Source: a bacterium
Lineage (GTDB): Bacteria > Patescibacteriota > Minisyncoccia > Phycocordibacterales > UBA6899
Direction: 5' to 3'
DNA length: 64,000 nucleotides
Assembly (NCBI GenBank): GCA_043756865.1
Contig: JAYUQG010000019.1
Span: 33,772 to 97,771, forward strand
Made by a program: the position numbers and the translations under genes. The notes beneath the pieces were generated by a model. It did not search any database and was not told the DNA's origin. It saw only the letters and a program-made list of their open reading frames with translations. Positions 2,139-53,864 of this stretch are shown here, one piece after another (the stretch's first letter is position 1; each line of letters begins with the position of its first letter).

Positions 2139-2816
2139 ATGAATAATGACAAAAGAGAAAGTTTCAAGCGACTCTCCCAATCCAGATTAGGAAAGATAAC
2201 AGATGCGCTTGATGTATTGGGTAACTGCTCGAATAAGAGTGCTTACGAGTACACAGAGGAGGATGTATCAGAAATTTTTGGCAAAATTGAGGAGAAAGTG
2301 CGCCAGACAAAATCAAGGTTCAAGCTAGAACCAGCTGTGCTTGTTCCTGGTGACAACAAATCTAAGACATGGAAGCAGCTTGCATCTAGTCTGAAGTCGC
2401 ATGGATCGTTGAATCATGCATTCTCTAAGACACAGTGGGGCCATCATTGCGTGCGGTTTTACATTAGAGACAGCATGTTTTGGATTACATGCTATACCGC
2501 GGATTTTAAAGATGCTGATAAGCGTAGATACGGAATATTTATCTCTTACCCAGGCTTTTTTCAGCGAAGCAATATGAGTGTCAGCCAAAAGGCAGCAGTT
2601 GATTCTTTGCAGTCGCTTTTGATTAAGAATGGCGACAAGATTAACAGTGTCCTGCCAGATGCCTATATTGCCGACAAAGATGCGGACGATGGAGAGTTGG
2701 CTGGATGGACTCGTGATCTAAGTGAGTTTCCATCAGATGAAGCGGCAATCGAATGGCTGAAATCAATGCTCGATACATATTCAGAACTTGTAGTCCCATT
2801 GATAAAAGAAGTTTAA
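2139..2816 (+). CDS. hypothetical protein (225 aa), first gene of the island operon
   Basis: ATG start. The stop is 13 nt before the next gene. No motif recognised. Confidence 0.5.
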   Translation: MNNDKRESFKRLSQSRLGKITDALDVLGNCSNKSAYEYTEEDVSEIFGKIEEKVRQTKSRFKLEPAVLVPGDNKSKTWKQLASSLKSHGSLNHAFSKTQWGHHCVRFYIRDSMFWITCYTADFKDADKRRYGIFISYPGFFQRSNMSVSQKAAVDSLQSLLIKNGDKINSVLPDAYIADKDADDGELAGWTRDLSEFPSDEAAIEWLKSMLDTYSELVVPLIKEV

Positions 2817-2829
2817 AATCTTTGGTTTC

Positions 2830-4338
2830 ATGAAATTAATATCTAAATCAAAGTTTCTTCAATATCTCGAGTGTCCAAAGGATACATGGTTTCTGCTGCA
2901 TATGCCGAACCTTCCGGAATTCGAGGTATCGACTTCTGAGCAAGGCATAATGGATCAGGGGAATGTCGTTGAAGAGTATGCAAAGAAGCTCAAAATATTT
3001 GCTGGGTATATTGAGGTCGAGAAACGGGGAAGAGAAGCAGATGAGGAAATTAGAAAACTTCTATCTCAAAAGGTTCCAGCCATATATCAACCCACCTTTG
3101 TTGCTGATGGATTTGTCATTCGTTGTGACTTCCTTGTGTGGAACAACAATGAAAGGAAGTGGGACCTGTATGAGGTGAAGGGCACTAATTCAAAAAAGGA
3201 TGAAGGGGGTCCACGGGACCACATCTCTGATATCGCATTTCAGGCAATCGTACTTGATCGCGCCGGTGTTTCCATTGGTAATAAATACATCGTCCATCTT
3301 AATAATGAGTATATTCGTGGCGACGAGTTGGATGTCGAACAGCTTTTTATTGTGAGCGACAGTACTGCTCAGGTAAAAGAAATGCTTGATGTTACTTCAG
3401 CACAAATGGAAAAGGCTAAAGAGTATCTCAATCAAGAAAATGAGCCGAAGGATGGTTGTGATTGTCATTTTAATGGTCGCAGTAGGCACTGCGACACGTT
3501 TGAGCGTTCACACCCCGAGATACCTGAATATTCCATACACGATATCTCGCGCATTGGGCTAAAGCCAGACAAGTTGATTCAGCTCATCACCGATGGAATT
3601 TATCATCTCGAGGATATCGACGACACATCAGATTTTAGTGTTATTCAGCAGAACCAAATTCATACCCACAAGACGAAGAAGGAAATTATTGATGTAAACG
3701 AGATTGCCAAGATTCTTGATGGTTATAAATATCCACTATACTTTTTTGATTACGAAACATTTGCGCCAGCGGTACCGATATACCCAGGATATGGAACATA
3801 TCGTCGTATCCCGATACAGTTCTCTTTGCACATCATAGACGAAAGGGGTGGTGCACTCCGTCACGTTGATTATGTACATACTGAAAACTCGGATCCATCT
3901 ATTTCAGTAGCCAAAATACTAGCTGATACGATTGATCCGAATGGCACTGTTCTTGCGTGGAATGTGGGGTTTGAAAAAGGTGTTACAAAAGAGCTTTCTG
4001 AACGCTTGCCGGAGTACAAAATTATACTCGATAGAATTTGTGATCAAATGCAGGATTTGCGTGATGTTTTTTCGAAACAACACTATGTGCATAAAGACTT
4101 TTGTGGGAGTTCAGGGGTGGGGGCTGTTATGGAGGCATTGTTGCCACATATGACATATGACCATCTGCCATATACGGGAAACGATGTTGGTTTCGTCTGG
4201 TGGAAGGATATTGTGAACGACGGAGCAAGTCCTGCTGATCGTGAAAAGAAGACGCACCTCATCCGTGAATACTGCAAACAAGATACTTTTGTAATGGTCG
4301 AAATCTTCCGTATCTTGAGTGATATTGCCAGAAATTAA
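2830..4338 (+). CDS. DUF2779-type nuclease-family protein (N-terminal PD-(D/E)xK / Cas4-RecB-like fold)
   Basis: N-terminus ISKSKFLQYLECPKDTWF resembles the DUF2779 family. A ..D..YEVKGT.. E-x-K motif is present, as is FFDYETFAPAVPIY. 502 aa. Confidence 0.6.
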   Translation: MKLISKSKFLQYLECPKDTWFLLHMPNLPEFEVSTSEQGIMDQGNVVEEYAKKLKIFAGYIEVEKRGREADEEIRKLLSQKVPAIYQPTFVADGFVIRCDFLVWNNNERKWDLYEVKGTNSKKDEGGPRDHISDIAFQAIVLDRAGVSIGNKYIVHLNNEYIRGDELDVEQLFIVSDSTAQVKEMLDVTSAQMEKAKEYLNQENEPKDGCDCHFNGRSRHCDTFERSHPEIPEYSIHDISRIGLKPDKLIQLITDGIYHLEDIDDTSDFSVIQQNQIHTHKTKKEIIDVNEIAKILDGYKYPLYFFDYETFAPAVPIYPGYGTYRRIPIQFSLHIIDERGGALRHVDYVHTENSDPSISVAKILADTIDPNGTVLAWNVGFEKGVTKELSERLPEYKIILDRICDQMQDLRDVFSKQHYVHKDFCGSSGVGAVMEALLPHMTYDHLPYTGNDVGFVWWKDIVNDGASPADREKKTHLIREYCKQDTFVMVEIFRILSDIARN

Positions 4339-4454
4339 TTTTGCTTTACGCCGATTAGTAATGGTTGTAGGGTAATGATTGCCGAGGGTGCATACGGGAG
4401 ATTGTCATGCATCGATCCCACTTGGCATAAAATGCAAAATATCAAAATAAATAT

Positions 4455-5666
4455 ATGAATGAAATTATTTGCCCAAATTGTAAAAAAGCTTTCAAGGTTG
4501 ACGAGACCGGATTTGCCGATATTTTAAAGCAAGTCCACGATCATGAGTTTGAAAAAGAACTAAATTCACGTGAGGAAATGCTAAAAAAAGATAAAGAAAA
4601 TGCAGTTAAACTCGCCGAGGCAAATATTACGAACTCACTGCAGAAAGACATTGCAAAGAAGGATGCTGAACTAGCCGAAATAAAATCCAAAATTAATAAC
4701 GCAGAGCTTGAGAAAAAACTTGCAGTCACTGAAGCGGTCAATAAAATTGAAAAAGAGCGCGATGAACTAGCTGGCGAGCTGAAAAGTAAAGATGCTGAGA
4801 AACAACTACTCGAGACATCACTAAAAGATAAATATACTACTGAGCTCAAGACCAAGGACGATATCATCAAGATGAAAGATGAGGAAATTGCTCTTCGTAA
4901 AGATATGAAGGTCAAGCTTTCAACAAAAATGATCGGTGAAACACTTGAACAACACTGCGAAACCGAGTTTAACAAACTTCGCGCAACTGGATTTCAGAAT
5001 TCGTATTTCGAAAAAGACAACGACGCAAAAACTGGCAGTAAGGGTGATTATATCTATCGCGAAACCGATGATGCTGGTAATGAAATCATTTCTATTATGT
5101 TTGAAATGAAAAACGAAGGCGATGAAACAGCTACCAAGAAAAAGAACGAAGACTTTTTACGCGAACTTGATAAGGATCGCGCCGAAAAAAAGTGTGAGTA
5201 TGCCGTTCTAGTTACACTTTTGGAATCTGAAAATGAGCTTTATAACACCGGCATTGTTGATGTTTCTCATAAATACCAAAAAATGTATGTAGTTCGACCA
5301 CAATTTTTCATTCCCATGATAACTCTACTACGCAACGCATCCATGAACTCGCTTAAGTATAAAGCCGAGCTTGCGGTGGTAAGGAATCAGAACATCGATA
5401 TCACCAACTTCGAGGAAAATATGAACAAGTTTAAAGATGGCTTTAAAAAAAATTATGAGCTTGCTTCAAGCCGATTTAAAATAGCAATCGATGAAATCGA
5501 CAAAACCATTGACCATCTTCAGAAAACCAAAGATGCGCTCCTGTCCTCTGAAAATAACCTTCGTCTAGCGAACAATAAAGCAGAATATCTGACAATCAAA
5601 AAACTGACGCATGCCAATCCTACAATGACTAAAATGTTCGCAGATATTACTGATGCAAGTGAATGA
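4455..5666 (+). CDS. DUF2130 family protein (N-terminal CxxC zinc ribbon, long coiled coil, globular C-terminus)
   Basis: [32 protein letters not shown] is a typical DUF2130 N-terminus. A K/E-rich heptad region follows. C-terminal segment [22 protein letters not shown] has a possible D...ExK motif. Confidence 0.65.
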
Positions 5667-5733
5667 GTACAACCTTTTGACGTTCGGTCGGTTGTATTAC
5701 ATGCAGATAATTAAATAGTGCTTTATCCAGAGT

Positions 5734-6540
5734 GTGGCGAGAGACTGGCTCAACGACCCACCGGCAACCCTCAGTAATGAGAAGGTGCCAACCAGCCCCG
5801 AAAGGGGAAAGATAAACGTCGAAACTCTTTCCTTTGTACGGATGGAGTTTTTATTATTTAGGTTCAAAAACATGAGATCAACAACTATCAGTCGTGAAGC
5901 GTACCTTGGCAGTAAAGAGGAGAAGGAAATTTATGAATTAGAGGAAATAGACAGCAACAAGTATCGGCTACTCGGACGTGCCACAGGGATTAGCATGGAT
6001 CACTGCGTACTCATCGGATCAAATCACAAAAAAGAATTCTGGCACAGAGTGTATGGATTTCAGATTATACAAAATGAAAAAACAGAGAGAGCACTGCTTG
6101 AGGCGGCGCGGAAGATCAAGCCAGAGACCGAGTCGTATGTGACCGTGCAATTCTATGAACGGCTTTCAGAAGAAAAGTATATGTTTATACCCAAGCGCCT
6201 GGAAATTGCTGACCGTCCTGAGTTAAGCAACTTTCCACTTAATATATTGTTCGGCACGGCATGTCTCACTGACAACAACAGACAAATATTCGAAACGTCA
6301 GAATATGTCCCCGACCTCACCACCTTTACAGAGGAAGGTGATGAGCAGAAGTTGCGCTACTACAATTCACTCGATAACACGCGATGCCACTCTGCAGAGA
6401 TTGTGTATAACACAAAAGACCAATCGTATGTCGGTACGAAGTATCGCGGTGATAAACATGCCGGCATGGCTTTTGGTAATGCGTGGGATCCGTTCTTTGT
6501 GCATTTCACAATGCTGGGAGTAGGGGTTAACATTGATTAG
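5734..6540 (+). CDS. hypothetical protein (start uncertain)
   Basis: ORF-track start 5734 is GTG. In-frame ATGs lie at 5842 (MEFLLF) and 5872 (MRSTT; AGGT 11 nt upstream). No motif recognised. The 5' 100 nt are unusually GC-rich. Confidence 0.4.
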   Translation: MARDWLNDPPATLSNEKVPTSPERGKINVETLSFVRMEFLLFRFKNMRSTTISREAYLGSKEEKEIYELEEIDSNKYRLLGRATGISMDHCVLIGSNHKKEFWHRVYGFQIIQNEKTERALLEAARKIKPETESYVTVQFYERLSEEKYMFIPKRLEIADRPELSNFPLNILFGTACLTDNNRQIFETSEYVPDLTTFTEEGDEQKLRYYNSLDNTRCHSAEIVYNTKDQSYVGTKYRGDKHAGMAFGNAWDPFFVHFTMLGVGVNID

Positions 6541-6554
6541 ACTGAGATTCAACA

Positions 6555-6851
6555 ATGAAACCCACAACACCCCAAACCATTTCTCCTGCCAAGATGACGT
6601 TTGCCGTAGAGGCAAACTACGCGTCTTCGGGTTGGAAGACTCTGGTATTCAATTGCTATTGCCATACGCTGTTTGAGGCCGCCGAGGCAATTGGGACAGC
6701 AACACACTGTTCAGTAGCAGAATCAATCCGCTTGGCAGGCGTTGCCGAAACAACTGGCCAAGCAATCGTCATGGAAGGATCAGAATTTGAATGTGAGACA
6801 GCTGCCGGGGTGATTCGCGGCCGTGGACTTACCTCGCTCGCAACGACTTAG
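6555..6851 (+). CDS. small hypothetical protein (98 aa)
   Basis: ATG ORF filling the gap between flanking genes. GC is higher than its surroundings, so it could instead be structured RNA. Confidence 0.3.
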   Translation: MKPTTPQTISPAKMTFAVEANYASSGWKTLVFNCYCHTLFEAAEAIGTATHCSVAESIRLAGVAETTGQAIVMEGSEFECETAAGVIRGRGLTSLATT

Positions 6852-6960
6852 CTTAAATCATGCACCATGTCTAATCTTGGCTAATCTGCAATTGCACTCT
6901 TGCCAAAAATCAGAAAATAAGCATAACAATATATGTATTTTCATGTAGTATTCAAGATAT

Positions 6961-9606
6961 ATGATTATCAAGGGCATATGTCACAGGTGTCATAATTATG
7001 GGGATATCCAGCCGAACGGATATACCATGGAGGGTATTTGTGAAAATTGTATCAAGGGCGCCCAGCGCGAAAAAATACAAGAGCAGGAAAGGGTAGATAA
7101 AGAGCGACAAGAAAGAATTATCGCCGCTCTTGCACCAGCACAAGCTCTCCTGTCAGGTGGGAATATCATCGGCGCAGACCAGGTTGCTCTTGAGCAAGGA
7201 TCGGACGAATTGCTTGATGAATACGAAAAAATTAAGTCTAAGTATATACAAAAGGATTTACGAAACTTGGAGAAAGAACTCGAGGTGGGTGAAGGATATT
7301 TTGACGATGAAAAGGCCGTTGCTCTTTCTAAAACAGGAAAAAATATCCTTGTTCAAGCGCGAGCTGGTTCGGGGAAGACGACTGCAATAGCGTTGCGAGT
7401 GCGCCACCTAATTAAATTTTACGGTGCGAAGCCCGAAGAAATACTCATTCTTGCATTTAACAGGAAGGCAGCAGAAGAGTTTCGACTACGAATCAATAGC
7501 TACTTCAAAGGATCAAATCAAATTGCTACGGAATCTAACACACTAACATTCCATGCTCTCGCGCGTAGAATAGCAAATACTACAAAGAACATATTGCAGG
7601 ATGAGAGCAGGGATGGGAGCGAGGAGGGACGACATGGTGAAGACAAGAAGTTACAGATTGATTTTGTGCGAGAATGTTTTAATAAGGTAGAAAAAGAAGG
7701 ACATGGTCTTATCGAAAAACTTTTCTATCTATTTTTAAAATCGGCGTCTGAAAAAATTGGTGGCTTATTTAGAAACAGCGAGGACTACTATCTATATTTA
7801 CGAAACCTACAACACGTAACGATAGCTGGAGAGATTGTTAAGTCAAGAGGGGAGAAGTATATTGCCGATTTTCTATTCGAGCATCGAGTTACAAAAAATG
7901 GAAGGGAAATTGAATATGCATATGAGCGCAACATTAAAAAGAATATTAATGCAACTCGTCCATATAGCCCCGACTTCTCACTATTTTTTGTTGAAGATGA
8001 GGAGAAATTAGACCTTCAGGCCGTTGTCGAATTCTTTGGTTTTACCGAAAGTTATCCTGGGTACCCCGGGTTTTTTGAATCGCGGGCTGCGTCCAGGTCA
8101 TATCTAAACGAAGCAGAGCAAAAAAGAATATTATTTCGAGATAAGGACATGAAGCTGGTTGAAATGAACGCCAATGACCTGACATCTTCTGCAGATGTTA
8201 AATTAGAAAATAAGGAAGACGCAAACCGGCAGTGGTTTGAGGAAATCCTTCGACAGCGACTTACGCGGTCTGGTTTCGATATTTCTAAAGAGTGCCTAAG
8301 TATTAAGGAAATACTTGCAAAAATTCCCAAGGTGGAAAGAAGAAAAAAAGCATTGGTAAAACAAATAACGCAATTCATTAACAAGGCTCAAAAAATATCT
8401 TACGATCCGGATACGATCAGAACAATTGCGGGAAAAGAGAAGGAAAACGGAAGATTGAGTAAGCGCACAGAGTATTTTATTAAAATGGCATGTCGAGTAT
8501 ATGAGGAATATCATTCCAGACTGGAGAAGGAGCCGTTCACTGACTTCGACGGACTTCTTGTTGATGCAATAAAGAGAATTAAAAATGAAGGTAGCGTCTG
8601 CAAGATATTGCCCAAGGGAGGAAAGGGAGAGTCCCAAGATATAGGAAACATAAAATACATACTTATTGACGAGTACCAGGACTTTTCGAAATTATTTTGC
8701 GAGCTTATTGATGCAATCAGAACAAATAATCCACAAGTTTCATTTTTTTGTGTCGGAGATGATTGGCAGGCTATCAATGCATTTGCGGGCTCAGATTTAG
8801 AATATTTTGATAACTTTGAAAAATATTTTGTTGGCGGCCGTCGAACAAAGTTGCTGACGAACTATCGTAGTTGTGCACACATAATCGAGCATGCTAATTG
8901 TCTAATGAGGGGCAGGGGTGATGATGGAAAACCACAAGCACAAAAAGCTTTCGGTAGAGTGTATCTCATGTCGTTGCTTTGGGTTGAGAACAGACGGGAT
9001 CAAGAATATGAAGCAGAGTTTTTAGAAGATGAAAAATATAGGTCGGCTGCAAAGTTGCTTCTGGGACTTGAGGATGCTGATAAAGCAGCCCCATTTGAAC
9101 TTGTCTCTTACTTAAAAACCGTCGAGAAGGTTGTAAATGATTTGCCGTCGGATAAAAACATCTGCCTACTATTTCGTGGCAACCACATTCGTGGGTCCGA
9201 AATAACCAAATTCACAGAACAAATCCGTGCATGGACATCAGGTAATAAAAATAGAGTCATATGTTCGACGGCCCATGGATTTAAGGGAAAGGAATGCGAC
9301 GCAATCGTTGTGGTTGATGCAAACCATAGAAGTTATCCAAAGTTTCATCCCGACAATGAGCTAATGGAAATACTCGGCGTAACGTTGTCGAAGGTGATAG
9401 ACGAGGAGCGTCGCCTATTCTATGTGGCAATTACGAGAGCAAAGGAAAGTTTATATTTGCTATATGACAACGGTGCGACGGTTGGTATATCGGATTTTAT
9501 TGGAGAAATTGAAAAAGGTGGCTGGAATTATGAGTTAATGTCATCACGTGGCTCAAGTAAGAAGCTAGACGAGGAGCTAGATATGGGTGATGAAATTGCC
9601 TTTTAA
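6961..9606 (+). CDS. SF1 UvrD/PcrA-like DNA helicase with N-terminal zinc ribbon and large 1B-region insertion
   Basis: N-terminal CHRCHNYG..CENC. Walker A AGSGKTT. Motif II YILIDEYQDF, motif III VGDDWQAINAFAGS, motif IV NYRS, motif V TAHGFKGKECD, motif VI FYVAITRAKESLYL. About 400 aa inserted between motifs Ia and II. Confidence 0.8.
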   Translation: MIIKGICHRCHNYGDIQPNGYTMEGICENCIKGAQREKIQEQERVDKERQERIIAALAPAQALLSGGNIIGADQVALEQGSDELLDEYEKIKSKYIQKDLRNLEKELEVGEGYFDDEKAVALSKTGKNILVQARAGSGKTTAIALRVRHLIKFYGAKPEEILILAFNRKAAEEFRLRINSYFKGSNQIATESNTLTFHALARRIANTTKNILQDESRDGSEEGRHGEDKKLQIDFVRECFNKVEKEGHGLIEKLFYLFLKSASEKIGGLFRNSEDYYLYLRNLQHVTIAGEIVKSRGEKYIADFLFEHRVTKNGREIEYAYERNIKKNINATRPYSPDFSLFFVEDEEKLDLQAVVEFFGFTESYPGYPGFFESRAASRSYLNEAEQKRILFRDKDMKLVEMNANDLTSSADVKLENKEDANRQWFEEILRQRLTRSGFDISKECLSIKEILAKIPKVERRKKALVKQITQFINKAQKISYDPDTIRTIAGKEKENGRLSKRTEYFIKMACRVYEEYHSRLEKEPFTDFDGLLVDAIKRIKNEGSVCKILPKGGKGESQDIGNIKYILIDEYQDFSKLFCELIDAIRTNNPQVSFFCVGDDWQAINAFAGSDLEYFDNFEKYFVGGRRTKLLTNYRSCAHIIEHANCLMRGRGDDGKPQAQKAFGRVYLMSLLWVENRRDQEYEAEFLEDEKYRSAAKLLLGLEDADKAAPFELVSYLKTVEKVVNDLPSDKNICLLFRGNHIRGSEITKFTEQIRAWTSGNKNRVICSTAHGFKGKECDAIVVVDANHRSYPKFHPDNELMEILGVTLSKVIDEERRLFYVAITRAKESLYLLYDNGATVGISDFIGEIEKGGWNYELMSSRGSSKKLDEELDMGDEIAF

Positions 9607-47842: not shown

Positions 47843-47872
47843 CGCCCACATCCTTCTGTGAGGCGGTTTTTT
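47843..47872 (+). terminator. rho-independent terminator
   Basis: aaCCGCCcacatccttctgtgaGGCGGtttttt. Confidence 0.55.
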
Positions 47873-47917
47873 GACTCAAGAGTCTGCATGATAACCGGTG
47901 CGTGGTACAATGCGCCC

Positions 47918-50900
47918 ATGCACGCGAGCAAGAAATTTGATGAGGCATACCAGAGTCTCAATACGGAGCAGAAAATAGCAGTCGATACTATCGACGGACC
48001 CGTGATGGTCATTGCAGGTCCCGGTACAGGGAAAACACAAGTACTCGCACTTCGCGTCGGAAACATTCTCAAAAAAACTGATGCACGCCCCGGCAATATT
48101 CTTTGTCTCACATTTACTGATGCGGCGGCTATCAACATGCGAGAGCGTCTTGCGCGACTTATTGGCGCAGAGGGCTACAAGGTTGCCGTGCACACCTTTC
48201 ATAGTTTCGCGAGCGATATCATCGGTGCATATCCTGAATACTTTTATCATGGAGCTGACTTTCTTCCCGCCGACAACCTCAAGCAACTCGAAGTACTGGA
48301 AGAAGTATTTGCAGAACTCCCTCGCAGTAACCCACTCGCGTCAAAGCATGGAGACGAATACACCTATTTACGCGACGCGAAAAAGGCAATTCAATCACTC
48401 AAGCGTGCAGGACTGACACCTGAAGAATTCAGTGCAATCATAGAAGAAAACAAAAAGAGCCTTGGAGTAATTTCTCAAGGCATAGACGGTGTGTTTGCTG
48501 ATAGGTTATCTCAGAAAAGCATTGCGTTGGCAGCAGATCTTGCGGCATCACTGGCACGCCTGCCCGAGCAAGCGGGTGCCACGACGCGCACGCTGTCCCA
48601 CACGGTTGCAATTTCACTTACGCGCGCAGTTGCACTCGCACAGGAAGAGGAAAAGACGGCACCACTCTCGGCGTGGAAGGAAAAGTGGGCCAAAAAGAAT
48701 GAGGAGGGCGAACGTGTGCTCAAAGATGCACTCTATGTTGAAAAAATGGAGGCACTGATGTACGTGTACCGTAGGTACCGCGAGCTCATGCACCGTGAAC
48801 GGTATTATGACTTCGACGACATGCTACTCGACGTCGTCTGCGAATTATCCAAAAGCACATCACTGCTTTCGGACTTGCAGGAACGTTATCAATACATTCT
48901 CGTCGACGAGTTTCAGGACACCAACGATGCGCAACTACGCCTTGTGCGACTCCTTGGTAACGCGGAGGTTAATGAAGGAAAGCCAAACATTATGATTGTC
49001 GGCGACGACGATCAGGCAATTTATCGTTTTCAAGGTGCAGAGATTTCTAATATTCTAGATTTCCCAAAACAGTTCAGCGCACATGCACTCGTGGTGCTCA
49101 CAAAAAACTATCGCTCGACACAACACATCCTCGATGTCGCACGAGAGGTTATTGAGAAAAGCGAAGAACGTCTTGAGTCTGTTATCCCTACACTAGAGAA
49201 GAAGCTAGTCGCATCGCGACCTGAGCTCGGAGCAGGCAATATCGTCCACATGTTGTTACCAACACGCACCCACGAGTATGCCTATATTGCGCGGGAAATA
49301 CACGACCTCATCGACAAGGGGCATGATCCTTCTGAAATTGCGATTATCACGCGAAAGCATCGCGAGCTCGAAGACGTAGCACGCGTACTGGTGAGTGCGG
49401 GAATTCCTATCAACTACGAGCGAAAGCAAAACGTATTTGAGGAACCGCACGTAAAAATACTTATAACGATGGGGCGCTTCGTCTCGTCACTTATGCGTGA
49501 TGGTAAGGTGCCCGCCGACCACTTACTCCCCACCATTCTCTCAGCACCGTTTTGGGGACTTTCTCGTGAAACTATTTGGGACATATCCGTCAGTGCCGCA
49601 ACACGTATTGACCGCATGTGGCTCAACGCCATGCGTGAGCATCACGATACCAGTGTCAGAGATATTGCGAATTGGTTCATACGACTCGGGGCTGACTCTC
49701 ACCACGACCCACTTGAGCGCATACTCGACGAACTCATCGGCACCGAGGACGTACTCCTACCAGGCGGAGGAGGGGAAGAGGAGACCCATGAGACTTCCGC
49801 AACCCCCCATGCAAAGTCAAAGCGCGTGCGCTCATTCAAGAGTCCATTTCGTGAATTTTATTTTGGTAATGATGCACGAAGTGGCGCGGAATCAACGTAT
49901 CTGCTATTTCTCTCAAGTCTTCGCGTCTTCATGAACACACTGAAAGTGTTTAAGAATGGAAAGCCACTCTTTATTAACGATATCGCGCTTTTTGTAGATA
50001 TGCATGAACGGCACGACATCGCACTTCCCGACACAACCCCATTTGTCAGTGCGAAAAAAGCCGTACATTTGATGACTGCACACAAGGCGAAAGGGCTTGA
50101 GTTCGAAACCGTCTTTGTTGCCTCATGCCAAGAAGAAATATGGGCGGGGCGAGGTTTTCCAAATAAACTTCCATTTCCGACAAATCTACCCATCGAGCCG
50201 GGGGAAGGGGGCGACGACAGGCTACGCATCTTTTACGTCGCAATGACACGTGCGAAAAAGCATTTGTATATCACCTCGTACCGCAAAAGTGACTCAGGCA
50301 AGGACTCGTTGAAAATCGGCTTCATCGTACCAGAGACAGACGGGGGCGCTATTGCTACGCACCTCTATGAGCAAGAGACCGTTATTTCTGCAGAGGAAAT
50401 AATGCGTGACATGTCGGAACACACCGTGAATCCTGCATATTTTTCCGTCACTCTCGGTGAACGCGCAATACTCGAAGAGCGGGTAAAGGATTATCACATG
50501 AGCGTCACACATCTCAATAATTTTCTTGATGTAACAAACGGTGGTCCTGCATATTTCTTGGAACAAAACCTGTTGAGCTTCCCGCAAGCGAAAAGCCCGA
50601 GTAGTGTGTACGGCTCCGCAATGCACAAAGGAGTCGAGCGATTTTATACGGAATTGAAAAAAACAGGAAAGGTGCCGTTGGAGGATAAATTGCTCGCGGG
50701 ATTTCGTGACGAAATGAAACGTGGACGCATCACCGAATCAGAGTATAAACATTTCTTGCGTGCGGGTGAAGAAGCGCTGCCTGTGTGGTATCGCGAGCGA
50801 GGAAAATTTGCCGACAAAAAGCACTACTCGGAGTTTAATTTCAAGGGGCAAGGTGTCGTTGTCGACGGTGTGCCCATAGTTGGGAAAATAGACAAAATGA

Positions 50901-51289
50901 TAGAGAACGATGGCGTCATGCAGGTCTGTGACTTCAAAACAGGCAAGGTCAAAGAAAACTGGGAGGGCAAGGATGCGCGTGAAAAAATCACACTTACTAA
51001 CTATCGACGTCAGTTGCTGTTTTACAAGCTACTGGTCGAGCACTCACATACATTTGAACGTTGTCGTGTCGAAACAGGCACACTGGAGTTTCTCGAGCCC
51101 AAAGAAGGCAAAATCTGTGAACTAGCGCTTAATTTAACCGACACCGAGACAGAACGCCTTGCAAAGCTTATCGTTGCGGTTCATGCAAAAATAATCGCAC
51201 TGGATTTTCCAGATGTATCGGCATACACAAAGGACCTCGCAGGAATTCTGCAATTCGAGGAGGACCTACTTTCTGGTGTGTGCGTATAA
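47918..51289 (+). CDS. UvrD/PcrA-type SF1 helicase fused to C-terminal RecB-family PD-(D/E)xK nuclease (AddA-like)
   Basis: AGPGTGKTQ, YILVDEFQDTND, VGDDDQAIYRFQGA, NYRS, TAHKAKGLEF, FYVAMTRAKKHLYI. C-terminal nuclease motifs GKIDK.. / VCDFKTGK / YRRQLLFYKLL. Upstream alternative starts: GTG at 47858, ATG at 47888. Confidence 0.85.
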   Translation: MHASKKFDEAYQSLNTEQKIAVDTIDGPVMVIAGPGTGKTQVLALRVGNILKKTDARPGNILCLTFTDAAAINMRERLARLIGAEGYKVAVHTFHSFASDIIGAYPEYFYHGADFLPADNLKQLEVLEEVFAELPRSNPLASKHGDEYTYLRDAKKAIQSLKRAGLTPEEFSAIIEENKKSLGVISQGIDGVFADRLSQKSIALAADLAASLARLPEQAGATTRTLSHTVAISLTRAVALAQEEEKTAPLSAWKEKWAKKNEEGERVLKDALYVEKMEALMYVYRRYRELMHRERYYDFDDMLLDVVCELSKSTSLLSDLQERYQYILVDEFQDTNDAQLRLVRLLGNAEVNEGKPNIMIVGDDDQAIYRFQGAEISNILDFPKQFSAHALVVLTKNYRSTQHILDVAREVIEKSEERLESVIPTLEKKLVASRPELGAGNIVHMLLPTRTHEYAYIAREIHDLIDKGHDPSEIAIITRKHRELEDVARVLVSAGIPINYERKQNVFEEPHVKILITMGRFVSSLMRDGKVPADHLLPTILSAPFWGLSRETIWDISVSAATRIDRMWLNAMREHHDTSVRDIANWFIRLGADSHHDPLERILDELIGTEDVLLPGGGGEEETHETSATPHAKSKRVRSFKSPFREFYFGNDARSGAESTYLLFLSSLRVFMNTLKVFKNGKPLFINDIALFVDMHERHDIALPDTTPFVSAKKAVHLMTAHKAKGLEFETVFVASCQEEIWAGRGFPNKLPFPTNLPIEPGEGGDDRLRIFYVAMTRAKKHLYITSYRKSDSGKDSLKIGFIVPETDGGAIATHLYEQETVISAEEIMRDMSEHTVNPAYFSVTLGERAILEERVKDYHMSVTHLNNFLDVTNGGPAYFLEQNLLSFPQAKSPSSVYGSAMHKGVERFYTELKKTGKVPLEDKLLAGFRDEMKRGRITESEYKHFLRAGEEALPVWYRERGKFADKKHYSEFNFKGQGVVVDGVPIVGKIDKMIENDGVMQVCDFKTGKVKENWEGKDAREKITLTNYRRQLLFYKLLVEHSHTFERCRVETGTLEFLEPKEGKICELALNLTDTETERLAKLIVAVHAKIIALDFPDVSAYTKDLAGILQFEEDLLSGVCV

Positions 51290-51966: not shown

Positions 51967-52299
51967 ATGGCACTTGTCGAAATCGACCATGTTCTGGGCA
52001 CGCTCGAAAAAGAGTTCAGTGTCTGTCTGACGCTCAAGCAGCGACAGGAAGCGCGAGGCATTTACGGTGTCATGGTGCGACTTGCACTCATACACACGCT
52101 CAAGTCAGAAACTCTGCGCATGATTTTCAGCAAGCTGAAAGACCTGCCCGAGGGTTACGCACATGCCGAGCAAATCATGTTGTTTGCGACACCCGATGAG
52201 TGCAAACACATACAAGTTGCGCAAGCCGTATCCCAAGCGATAGGCAGGGCAGCGCGAACGTCGCAAAGCAATGGCAACTTCCCCCCGCTCTTTTCGTGA
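51967..52299 (+). CDS. hypothetical protein (110 aa)
   Basis: ATG ORF. No motif recognised. Confidence 0.35.
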   Translation: MALVEIDHVLGTLEKEFSVCLTLKQRQEARGIYGVMVRLALIHTLKSETLRMIFSKLKDLPEGYAHAEQIMLFATPDECKHIQVAQAVSQAIGRAARTSQSNGNFPPLFS

Positions 52300-52349
52300 G
52301 TACAACCGTCAACTTGGCGGTTTTTTTGTATCTCCACTACAATATAGGA

Positions 52350-53864
52350 ATGGCTAATCTCAGGCAGACTCTCTATGCGTGGCGAGACAATGAGGCGGCG
52401 ACACGGGGTGTCGAGCTTTTTCGCATACTCCCGAATACTGCCCTCGAAGAGATTGTACGCAGTGTCCCCAAGACGAGAGAAGAGTTAATGGCCATCAAGG
52501 GCATTAAGGATGCGAAGTTCGCTCAGTTTGGGCAAGTCATTCTTGGACTTGTGGCGAATCACACCGCAACTGCACTACATGGAGATGTCGCACCGAAAAC
52601 TGATGATGTGCCACCCGCGCAAAAAGAAGAAAAGAAGGCATTTTCGGTTAGTGCATATCTCGACATCATCAACAGGGAGTTGTGGAGACTGCGCGCACGC
52701 GTGCAGGGTGAAGTCACGAGTTTTAAGTTTCAAGGTAGCGCAGTGTACCTCGCACTGAAAGATGCAGCGGACGACAGCACCCTCAATGTATTCATGTGGA
52801 CGCGTGACCAAGTGCTCTCCGGCATTGAGCTCCGCGAAGGACTCGAAATTGTTATTGAAGGAAGATCAGAAATCTACAAACCCTCAGGGAGATTCAGTTT
52901 TCGTGCTGAGACAATGGAGCTCGTAGGCGAGGGTGCGCTAAAAAAAGCATACGACACGCTGAAGAAAAAGCTGGAAAGCGAAGGACTCTTTGATGTTGCG
53001 CGCAAGCGCGCGCTACCAGAATTTCCGGAGCGTATCGGCCTCATCACCTCGCGCACAGGTGCGGTTATACATGATTTTTCGACAAACCTTGGGAGATTTG
53101 GCTACACGATTTCATTTGTAGACTCGCGCGTTGAGGGCACACTCGCAGTGAAAGACATTCTCAAAGCAATTGAACTGGTACAAACAAAACACATAGACGT
53201 ATTGGTGCTCATACGCGGAGGGGGAAGTTTGGAGAGCTTACAGGCCTTCAACAACGAAGCAGTGGTCCGCGCACTTATCGCTGTGCCTGTTCCAGTGATT
53301 TGTGCTATTGGTCATGACAAGGACGTACCACTCGCACAACTCGTGGCAGATTTTGCACCATCGACACCCACTGCAGCCACTACATTACTTAATAAATCGT
53401 GGGAGGATGCGCGTCATGAAATGCGTCTACACGAGCGAGAAATAGTCTCTCGTTATGAACGTGTGCTCTGGTCAAACACCGATGTTATCGCAAGCACTGT
53501 GGCACACATAGAAACATTCTTTGGGCGAATCATAAAGCCAATAAAAGCGTTAACGCAAGATTTCGAAGGACACACACGTACACTCGAGTCTTGGTTTGCA
53601 ACCACTCAAAGAGAACTCCAAAATACAAAAAAGGAAATGTTGCGCCTTTCTGAGCGCGGACACAGCGTACAGAGTGCACTACTTGAGGCATGTACTAAAT
53701 CTCTCGCAATGCACGACCCCATGCGCCAGCTAAAACTGGGCTATAGCATTCTCCTTAGGCAGGGAAAAGTCCTGCGTTCGGTAAAACAACTCGCCCCGGG
53801 GGACAATTTTGATGCACAGCTTTCCGATGGTACACTGTCCGCAACACTCAACCACAAGGAGTAA
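52350..53864 (+). CDS. xseA: exodeoxyribonuclease VII large subunit with N-terminal HRDC-like domain
   Basis: OB-fold plus catalytic core (ITSRTGAVIHDF, LIRGGGSLESL, AIGHDKD). N-terminal about 65 aa resemble an HRDC helix bundle (ELFRILPNTALEEIVRSVPKTREELMAIKGI). ATG at 52350 with AGGA upstream. Confidence 0.8.
   Translation: MANLRQTLYAWRDNEAATRGVELFRILPNTALEEIVRSVPKTREELMAIKGIKDAKFAQFGQVILGLVANHTATALHGDVAPKTDDVPPAQKEEKKAFSVSAYLDIINRELWRLRARVQGEVTSFKFQGSAVYLALKDAADDSTLNVFMWTRDQVLSGIELREGLEIVIEGRSEIYKPSGRFSFRAETMELVGEGALKKAYDTLKKKLESEGLFDVARKRALPEFPERIGLITSRTGAVIHDFSTNLGRFGYTISFVDSRVEGTLAVKDILKAIELVQTKHIDVLVLIRGGGSLESLQAFNNEAVVRALIAVPVPVICAIGHDKDVPLAQLVADFAPSTPTAATTLLNKSWEDARHEMRLHEREIVSRYERVLWSNTDVIASTVAHIETFFGRIIKPIKALTQDFEGHTRTLESWFATTQRELQNTKKEMLRLSERGHSVQSALLEACTKSLAMHDPMRQLKLGYSILLRQGKVLRSVKQLAPGDNFDAQLSDGTLSATLNHKE

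Follow-up and report, generated by a model that had tools for sequence, protein, structure and literature searches.

The helicase gene and its motor

The sequence analysed here (the window) is a stretch of 64,000 nucleotides from a patescibacterial genome (contig JAYUQG010000019.1 of assembly GCA_043756865.1, positions 33,772 to 97,771 of the forward strand), and its positions 6961 to 9606 on the forward strand hold a single ATG-initiated open reading frame (ORF) of 881 codons, predicted to encode a helicase IV-like superfamily 1A (SF1A) helicase with a nuclease-fold domain nested inside it. The NCBI call for the identical protein (P0001, 859 residues) begins at Met23 and so loses the first Cys pair of an N-terminal Cys4 motif, and an independent Logan gene call gave 881 residues. 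Because the Cys4 motif recurs in homologues and the Logan call agrees, the ATG at 6961 is the preferred start.

Two Pfam families matched the helicase core above their gathering scores: UvrD-helicase (PF00580; E = 1.4e-39, 136.9 bits relative to a cutoff of 23) and UvrD_C (PF13361; E = 1.6e-14, 54.5 bits relative to 25.6). The earlier note on this DNA had reported that the superfamily 1 motifs were all present, and inspection of the sequence indeed showed motifs I, Ia, II, III, IV, V, and VI, the coordinates of which were checked. The first part of the RecA-like domain 1A (residues 113 to 207, positions 7297 to 7581) contains the Q-motif region, the Walker A sequence ARAGSGKTT (residues 133 to 141, 7357 to 7383), motif Ia ILILAFNRKAAEEF (residues 161 to 174, 7441 to 7482), and motif Ib TFHALA (residues 196 to 201, 7546 to 7563). 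The second part of domain 1A (8659 to 8793) contains motif II ILIDEYQDFS, with the DEYQD signature (residues 567 to 576, 8659 to 8688), and motif III FFCVGDDWQAINAFAGS (residues 595 to 611, 8743 to 8793). Domain 2A, together with a much reduced 2B domain (about 8974 to 9141), occupies positions 8851 to 9480 and contains motif IV LLTNYRSCAHII, with the sequence NYRS (residues 631 to 642, 8851 to 8886), motif V STAHGFKGKECDAIVVV (residues 769 to 785, 9265 to 9315), and motif VI EERRLFYVAITRAKESLYL (residues 815 to 833, 9403 to 9459). The Walker A, DExQD, and arginine-finger residues were invariant across 119 aligned full-length homologues, and the modelled fold of the motor agrees with those of solved SF1A helicases. 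On these motifs, the protein is assigned to the SF1A (UvrD/Rep/PcrA-type) motors with intact ATPase and translocation motifs, and 3′-to-5′ unwinding is predicted.

The position of the Q-motif Gln is taken by Lys118 (7312 to 7314). Of 117 aligned sequences, 35, those of the Patescibacteria clade, have Lys at this position, and 81, from the other family members, have Gln; the replacement may alter nucleotide recognition.

A nuclease-fold domain nested in the 1B domain

The secondary structure of the full-length AlphaFold2 model showed, in order, the N-terminal helices of the 1B domain (residues 232 to 282, 7654 to 7806), a nuclease fold of the PD-(D/E)xK type, Vsr-like branch (about residues 285 to 445, 7813 to 8295), the C-terminal helices of 1B (residues 448 to 546, 8302 to 8598, aligning with residues 370 to 416 of helicase IV and with UvrD from residue 176 onwards), and then motif II. 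Because of this order, the nuclease fold is placed as an insertion within 1B, which is itself inserted in 1A. The previously suggested figure of about 400 extra residues between motifs Ia and II was too high: about 390 residues is the whole distance between these motifs, and the excess is about 230 to 270 residues relative to UvrD (about 230 in the alignment with Deinococcus radiodurans UvrD, in which residues 207 to 509 lie opposite UvrD 102 to 176) and about 180 relative to Escherichia coli helicase IV, the product of helD (residues 204 to 475, 271 residues, lie opposite HelD 282 to 370, 88 residues).

All 119 of the aligned full-length homologues keep the insertion in register, and a profile of the domain, when run against 1.84 billion cluster representatives, gave 8,307 matches at E ≤ 1e-3, 2,228 at E ≤ 1e-10, and 296 at E ≤ 1e-30. 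Therefore, given the conserved register and the 2,228 representatives found by the profile, the insertion is not a chance feature. Among the best 150 matches, the full-length proteins (about 800 to 1,400 residues) hold the domain internally, and the remainder are shorter and fragment-like.

The AlphaFold2 model of residues 272 to 452, built on an alignment of 42 sequences, had a mean predicted local distance difference test value (pLDDT) of 95.4 and a predicted template modelling score (pTM) of 0.90. Its topology is helix, β-hairpin, β, β, helix, β, helix, β, with an αβββαβ core, and both this core and the structural similarity to solved members place the model in the PD-(D/E)xK superfamily at the level of fold. 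The insertion thus did not resolve into ordinary 1B/2B helicase subdomains lacking a nuclease-fold signal, which the earlier note had given as the outcome that would speak against its proposal. The full-length model had a pTM of 0.89 and, because it is confident as a whole, suggests that the domain packs against the helicase. The top structural match of the domain model was the catalytic domain of the homing endonuclease I-Bth0305I, followed by others such as BpuSI (7.1) and the DUF559 protein NGO0050 (3hrl, 6.8), and the structural neighbours included RAP domains.

The match to I-Bth0305I is what would be expected if the insertion were what is left of a mobile element, a homing endonuclease or an intein, after its entry into a helicase gene. 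We rejected this explanation as extremely improbable, because the domain lies at the same position, in register and strongly conserved, in every member sampled over many phyla, and because Pfam searches detected no Hint/intein or NUMOD domains; the suggested packing of the domain against the helicase also argues against a remnant.

Relation of the nested domain to Vsr-like nucleases

A resemblance had earlier been noticed between the motif IADFLFEHRV...YSPDFSLFFVEDEEKLDLQAVVEFFGF, which we located at residues 301 to 361, and the PDF...(E/V)xDG core of Vsr- and DUF559-type domains. The modelled fold and a register judged by eye agree with this resemblance, but a profile match is lacking, and the β3 Asp and the His of those families are missing. 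The Vsr, DUF559, and NERD profiles, against which a comparison had been proposed, gave no match to the insertion at E ≤ 10 or to the 42 aligned members at E ≤ 1, whereas genuine E. coli Vsr, DUF559, and Helicase_IV_N proteins, used as positive controls, gave E values of 1e-40 to 1e-63 (1e-40 and 1e-50 for Vsr and DUF559). Membership of the Vsr (PF03852), DUF559 (PF04480), MTES_1575, or EDxHD families was rejected because of the absent profile match and the incomplete catalytic set, and that of the NERD family (PF08378) because its profile found nothing in the query or in the 42 members. When the 42 members were searched individually, Pfam returned sub-threshold matches only; the families that matched more than one member were all nucleases (TnsA-like_N in four, Phage_endo_I in two, and RE_endonuc in two). 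PADLOC and NCBIfam searches of the protein gave generic helicase matches only.

Alignment of the domain with single sequences by hhalign was non-significant (probability 0.9% for E. coli Vsr and 2% for E. coli YcjD, a DUF559 protein) and was used for register only. In this register, G-E298-K falls on I-E25-K of Vsr, and Y-x-P-D338-F on G-R-P-D51-F; relative to YcjD, YxPDF falls on YILDF, h-h-E357-x-x-G on VVELDG, K388-R on R-R, and the following strand on VLRF. The window domain therefore shares with the Vsr/DUF559/EDxHD (I-Bth0305I) branch the order and register of elements, namely S/T-x-x-E in helix 1, x-D-F in β2, h-h-E-x-x-G in β3, and a basic pair in helix 2 that is followed by β4. It differs from this branch in that the β3 Asp of DUF559 (ELDG), the equivalent of Vsr His64, is Phe or Trp in the window family, and in that the domain is nested in a helicase and is neither free-standing nor terminal. 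The catalytic set of the branch consists of a Glu in helix 1, an Asp in β2, a His or Asp in β3, a general-base His (His69 in Vsr), and a downstream Asp (PMC3239194). His69 has no counterpart in the window family, and helix 2 carries Lys-Arg where the Vsr/EDxHD set has the downstream Asp. As modelled, the inserted domain is a restriction-endonuclease fold of the Vsr-like branch that lies outside the Vsr, DUF559, EDxHD, and NERD families.

Conserved residues and the candidate active site

Conservation was counted over about 265 diverse relatives of about 30 to 60% identity. Glu298 (codon 7852 to 7854), in the helix 1 motif K-S-x-G-E-K, was Glu in 266 of 267 sequences and aligns with Vsr Glu25; Asp338 (7972 to 7974), in Y-x-P-D-F at the start of β2, was Asp in 263 of 265 and aligns with Vsr Asp51 (RPDF) and with the LDF of YcjD; and Glu357 (8029 to 8031), in the β3 motif h-h-E-(Y/H/F)-(F/W)-G, was Glu in all 265 and aligns with the Glu of YcjD VELDG. 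Lys388 (8122 to 8124), which belongs to a Lys-Arg pair in helix 2 after β3, was Lys in 263 of 265 and is a candidate stand-in for the β3 Lys. Further positions were as well conserved: Tyr321, Pro337, and Phe339 (265/265 each), Ser295 (264/266), Lys299 (263/266), and Glu307 and Glu322 (263/265 each).

In the model, the conserved residues occupy helix 1, the start of β2, β3, and the helix after β3, which are the site positions of PD-(D/E)xK enzymes. In terms of the (D/E)-x-K motif, Asp338 and Glu357 are near invariant, but position +2 from Glu357 holds Phe or Trp and not Lys, and the conserved Lys388, Lys294, and Lys299 sit on flanking helices. Because three carboxylates and several lysines are invariant at about 30% overall identity, an active metal-dependent nuclease is inferred, and such conservation is hard to explain by structure alone. 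Sequence and model together thus make it probable that the nested domain is a metal-dependent nuclease with its lysine relocated to a helix.

Predicted action as a single-chain helicase-nuclease

The best explanation of these observations, to which we give a probability of roughly 60%, is that the gene product combines helicase and nuclease in one chain and serves DNA repair or recombination, the nuclease part being a prediction. The catalytic site of the nested domain would be formed by Glu298 (helix 1), Asp338 (start of β2), and Glu357 (β3), with a basic residue supplied by Lys388 of the following helix or by Lys294 or Lys299. In UvrD, PcrA, and Rep, the 1B domain sits on 1A over the single-strand track, near the junction, and it follows from this position that DNA moved by ATP-driven 3′-to-5′ translocation would be fed past a nuclease nested in 1B. 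In RecB, AddA, and AdnB, the tracked 3′-ended strand is cut by a C-terminal nuclease behind the motor. In the window protein, the cut might fall on the tracked 3′-ended strand as it leaves the motor or on the displaced strand.

Several results weigh against this interpretation. A Foldseek search of the PDB with the domain model gave no significant match (best E = 0.03), a Pfam search at E ≤ 10 with three sub-fragments of the insertion gave no relevant match, and the 42-sequence profile, when run against PDB sequences, gave only a chance match to Rab11. In the 265 relatives, the residue two after the β3 Glu was always Phe or Trp and no conserved His followed, so that, as judged from the alignment, neither a classical (D/E)xK site nor a Vsr/EDxHD site is complete. 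By analogy with RAP domains, which have the Vsr fold, the fold can also serve in binding. The position of the site relative to the DNA path is taken from general knowledge of SF1A helicases and would hold by analogy, and neither conserved partner genes (in 78 loci), LexA boxes, nor experimental literature supports the proposed role.

The main rival explanation, which we consider possible but not probable, is that the nuclease fold is catalytically dead. It would then bind DNA, junctions, or ends, or would stand in for the missing 2B domain as a wedge or lid and regulate unwinding, and the protein would act as a helicase or translocase only. The Phe or Trp found in all members where Lys, His, or Asp would follow the β3 acid, the absent Vsr His, and the lack of a nuclease profile match or a significant Foldseek match are all consistent with a non-catalytic lobe, as is the presence among the structural neighbours of RAP domains, which act in RNA binding; with 2B strongly reduced, a new regulatory or DNA-contacting lobe would also make sense. 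However, three acidic residues and several lysines at canonical positions are at least 99% conserved in very divergent sequences, and inactivated PD-(D/E)xK domains usually lose such active-site residues.

If the gene product is a helicase-nuclease, it might, during repair or recombination, process 3′-tailed ends, gaps, or stalled forks as an accessory enzyme that works alone; this cellular role is the most speculative part of the proposal. One functional hint, by analogy, comes from fusions: a C-terminal HIRAN domain was present in three of seven long family members scanned (P0052, P0142, and P0154). The HIRAN domain of HLTF and Rad5 binds 3′ DNA ends at stalled forks, and the fusions may thus point to a DNA-end or fork context. 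We tentatively put forward, as a doubtful extension, that the family could constitute an unrecognised class of end- or fork-processing enzymes, in which a Vsr-fold nuclease with a non-canonical E-D-E/Lys site is carried on a 1B lid over the single-strand track of a helicase IV-type motor and couples cutting to unwinding with no partner. If so, Patescibacteria, with their small genomes, could rely on it as one of the main routes of resection or of fork clean-up, and the helicase IV lineage would gain a defined biochemical role.

Fusions of a helicase with a nuclease, among them RecB, AddA, AdnB, Dna2, and Cas3, have central parts in repair and immunity, and to our knowledge the nuclease is terminal in all of the well-known cases. 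The novelty here is that the nuclease fold is nested in 1B within a UvrD-type motor, that its invariant residues form a variant set, and that current profiles miss it. The family is large and widespread in bacteria, and its annotation goes no further than "UvrD-helicase domain-containing protein" or "helicase IV". It has apparently not been the subject of a study, and full-text literature searches found no description of this nested helicase-nuclease architecture; the "UvrD-like ... Cas4-like" fusions (PMC7641849) have a different architecture, in which the nuclease is C-terminal. An active domain would couple unwinding to cleavage in a new manner, would provide a testable function for relatives of helicase IV, the role of which has been unclear since 1987, and would justify a new domain model for the annotation of genomes, in which this large family is at present unannotated.

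The N-terminal region

An N-terminal Cys4 ribbon had been proposed. The motif CxxC-x16-CxxC (C7-x2-C10...C27-x2-C30; residues 7 to 30, 6979 to 7050) is present and is kept in close Patescibacteria homologues, but the ribbon structure was modelled at low confidence (pLDDT 52 to 66), and the stretch gave no match in a Pfam search. A CxxC...CxxC or CxxC...HC motif was found in 21 of the 119 aligned sequences, namely the window protein, 17 close Patescibacteria homologues, and three distant relatives; CxxC...CxxC was present in 11 aligned sequences (the window protein counted) and an N-terminal CxxC...HC in seven close Patescibacteria homologues. On this sequence pattern, a putative zinc-binding ribbon is the better reading of the Cys4 motif.

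The ribbon is followed by a helical domain (residues 31 to 107, 7051 to 7281), which is defined by the full-length model (helices 28 to 65, 69 to 79, and 82 to 107) and by the alignment, in which F69, A72, D73, Y88, and K92 are kept. We rejected its identification as Helicase_IV_N (PF12462) because the query gave no match at E ≤ 1, whereas the E. coli HelD control gave 5.6e-63.

Relation to known helicases

The NCBIfam ranking was headed by helicase IV (NF008276; 183.4 bits), followed by PcrA (139 bits), UvrD (111 to 114 bits), Rep (112 bits), RecB-like, AddA, RecB, and HelD (37 bits), and all of the helicase scores fell far under the equivalog cutoffs (543 for helicase IV, 911 for PcrA, 965 to 1144 for UvrD, and 951 for Rep). 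The window protein resembles E. coli helicase IV (HelD, b0962) in having 28% identity over 366 residues (BLASTP), the distinctive motif III sequence GDDWQAI, and a reduced or absent 2B domain (PMC8655204 for the domains of HelD), and JGI gives the label "DNA helicase IV" to many proteins of the family. It differs in that it fails the helicase IV equivalog cutoff, in that the Cys4 motif and helices take the place of Helicase_IV_N, and in that HelD, with 88 residues opposite 271, lacks the nuclease-fold domain. As far as can be judged from these comparisons, the window protein is a sister of helicase IV that lies outside the equivalog.

In comparison to UvrD, PcrA, and Rep, the 2B domain of the window protein is about 135 residues shorter (residues 652 to 811, 159 residues, lie opposite UvrD 307 to 602, 295 residues) and 1B about 230 residues longer, there are extra N-terminal domains, and the equivalog cutoffs are missed by far. 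RecB, AddA, and AdnB differ in having a C-terminal RecB-family (PDDEXK_1) nuclease, whereas that of the window family is Vsr-like and nested in 1B, and in working with partners (RecC/D, AddB, and AdnA, respectively), whereas the window family has no conserved partner gene. By analogy, the protein is predicted to act in the manner of the RecB/AddA/AdnB class, yet it is no member of that class.

The domain plan also calls to mind the HelD-like factors that recycle RNA polymerase, which replace 1B with a new module, lack 2B, and have an N-terminal helical arm (PMC8655204); the N terminus of the window protein is likewise predicted to form long paired helices after the Cys4 motif. In such a factor, the zinc ribbon and helices would engage the polymerase and the 1B insertion would be a clamp arm. 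We consider this very unlikely, in that Rep and PcrA are much closer in structure, the HelD arm is not a nuclease fold, and the family-wide conservation of the E-D-E/K residues would have no role. A match to the HelD/HelR models of RNA polymerase recycling motors (NF041464 or NF041254) was also rejected on score: HelD_BACSU gave 37.4 bits (cutoff 419) and HelR 12.1 bits (cutoff 750).

Distribution of the family and gene neighbours of its members

When species genomes from GTDB were searched with one peptide pattern, 192 loci were confirmed, and these lie in Patescibacteria, Chloroflexota, Melainabacteria, Poribacteria, Gammaproteobacteria, Betaproteobacteria, Campylobacterota, Desulfobacterota, Bacteroidota, Planctomycetota, and Cyanobacteria. 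The distribution is patchy. Some genomes have two copies (loci L070, L071, and L085 in Poribacteria; L014/L017; and L034/L040), and tandem paralogues occur in Poribacteria, where a gene for a related helicase of about 860 to 890 residues lies immediately upstream of a family member. When the domain was searched with tblastn, it was found in 3 of 72,556 plasmid records, one of them archaeal, and in no phage record.

The gene appears to stand alone, in that no neighbour family was conserved across clades. Clustering of the neighbouring ORFs of 78 loci showed no more than synteny within single clades, besides a few tandem paralogues or fragments, and a comparison of three genomes showed that the small ORFs immediately preceding the gene are not homologous. 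The closest homologue, in a Moranbacteria genome, lies among ribosomal-protein, SSB, and elongation factor P (EF-P) genes, and a Levybacteria homologue adjoins two DNA methyltransferase genes and a serine recombinase gene. One LexA-box-like site was found in 71 kb of upstream sequence, which is below background, although this is a weak test, with LexA motifs differing between phyla. A promoter and terminator scan around the helicase gene was uninformative.

The patchy distribution, the two copies in some genomes, and the Levybacteria neighbours could be taken to indicate a single-gene anti-phage or anti-plasmid defence helicase-nuclease, like Nhi, Hna, or the GajB-type UvrD helicases, rather than a repair enzyme, and the PADLOC models of GajB and DRT-helicase matched at 1e-38. 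These matches span the generic UvrD core only, and neither GajA nor another partner is present in the window or the homologous loci. The gene does share a block of lower G+C content with Cas4-like/DUF2779 and DUF2130 genes, as described below, but when the window neighbours were compared with defence-system models, only a weak Cas4-like match (3.8e-6) and a marginal LmuB match (7.7e-4) were obtained, which make no complete system. Furthermore, the closest homologue has the setting just described, the domain is near absent from plasmids and absent from phage records, and the 78 loci have no conserved defence neighbours. A dedicated defence function is therefore unlikely on this evidence, and the helicase-nuclease of repair or recombination remains the preferred reading.

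Two other kinds of extension were seen in the family. HEAT-type repeats are present at the N terminus of two members (P0035 and P0045), and gammaproteobacterial and cyanobacterial members (P0060 to P0062, P0076, P0082, and P0086) have a conserved C-terminal extension of about 100 residues, RVGN...LKA.GY.W, which has no Pfam match.

Surroundings of the gene in the window

The neighbours of the helicase gene are a DUF2779/Cas4-like gene, a DUF2130 gene, an S-adenosylmethionine (SAM) riboswitch with its gene, a small Cys-rich ORF, and uncharacterised downstream genes. Upstream on the same strand, positions 2830 to 4338 (forward) encode a protein of 502 residues with a Cas4-like N terminus (the PADLOC Cas4 match mentioned above) and DUF2779, and positions 4455 to 5666 (forward) encode a DUF2130 protein of 403 residues. 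The products of both genes likely act on nucleic acids, and neither gene is conserved beside helicase homologues. Positions 5720 to 5818 (forward) hold a SAM riboswitch of the S-box type (Rfam RF00162; 64 bits relative to a gathering score of 44). Directly after it comes an ORF at 5842 to 6540, read as a SAM-regulated gene, to which Pfam, NCBIfam, and PADLOC gave no match; its start as listed, a GTG at 5734, overlaps the riboswitch, and translation probably begins at the ATG near 5842. An ORF of 98 residues that is rich in Cys (6555 to 6851) comes next, and the helicase gene follows after 109 nucleotides. The same-strand block of 7.5 kb that includes the helicase gene (2139 to 9606) has a G+C content of 0.41, compared to 0.47 for the whole window, and may have been acquired horizontally; no integrase or tRNA gene was seen at its edges.

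The separate AddA-like helicase-nuclease that had been described in the window is real (ORF 47858 to 51289, forward; UvrD-helicase, UvrD_C, and PDDEXK_1), but its core is best read as PcrA/UvrD (280 and 227 bits, under the cutoffs), with a C-terminal RecB-type PDDEXK_1 nuclease, and no AddB-like gene adjoins it. In this genome it probably takes the place of PcrA/UvrD, in the form of a fusion to a RecB-type nuclease. Because this second helicase looks like the PcrA/UvrD equivalent and because the family is patchy, it is plausible, as suggested earlier, that the helicase at 6961 to 9606 is accessory and not housekeeping. The window also encodes UvrA, UvrB, and the large subunit of exonuclease VII, the last of which (52200 to 53864, forward) has an N-terminal HRDC domain (2.6e-16) before its oligonucleotide/oligosaccharide-binding (OB) fold, a fusion that may be unusual.

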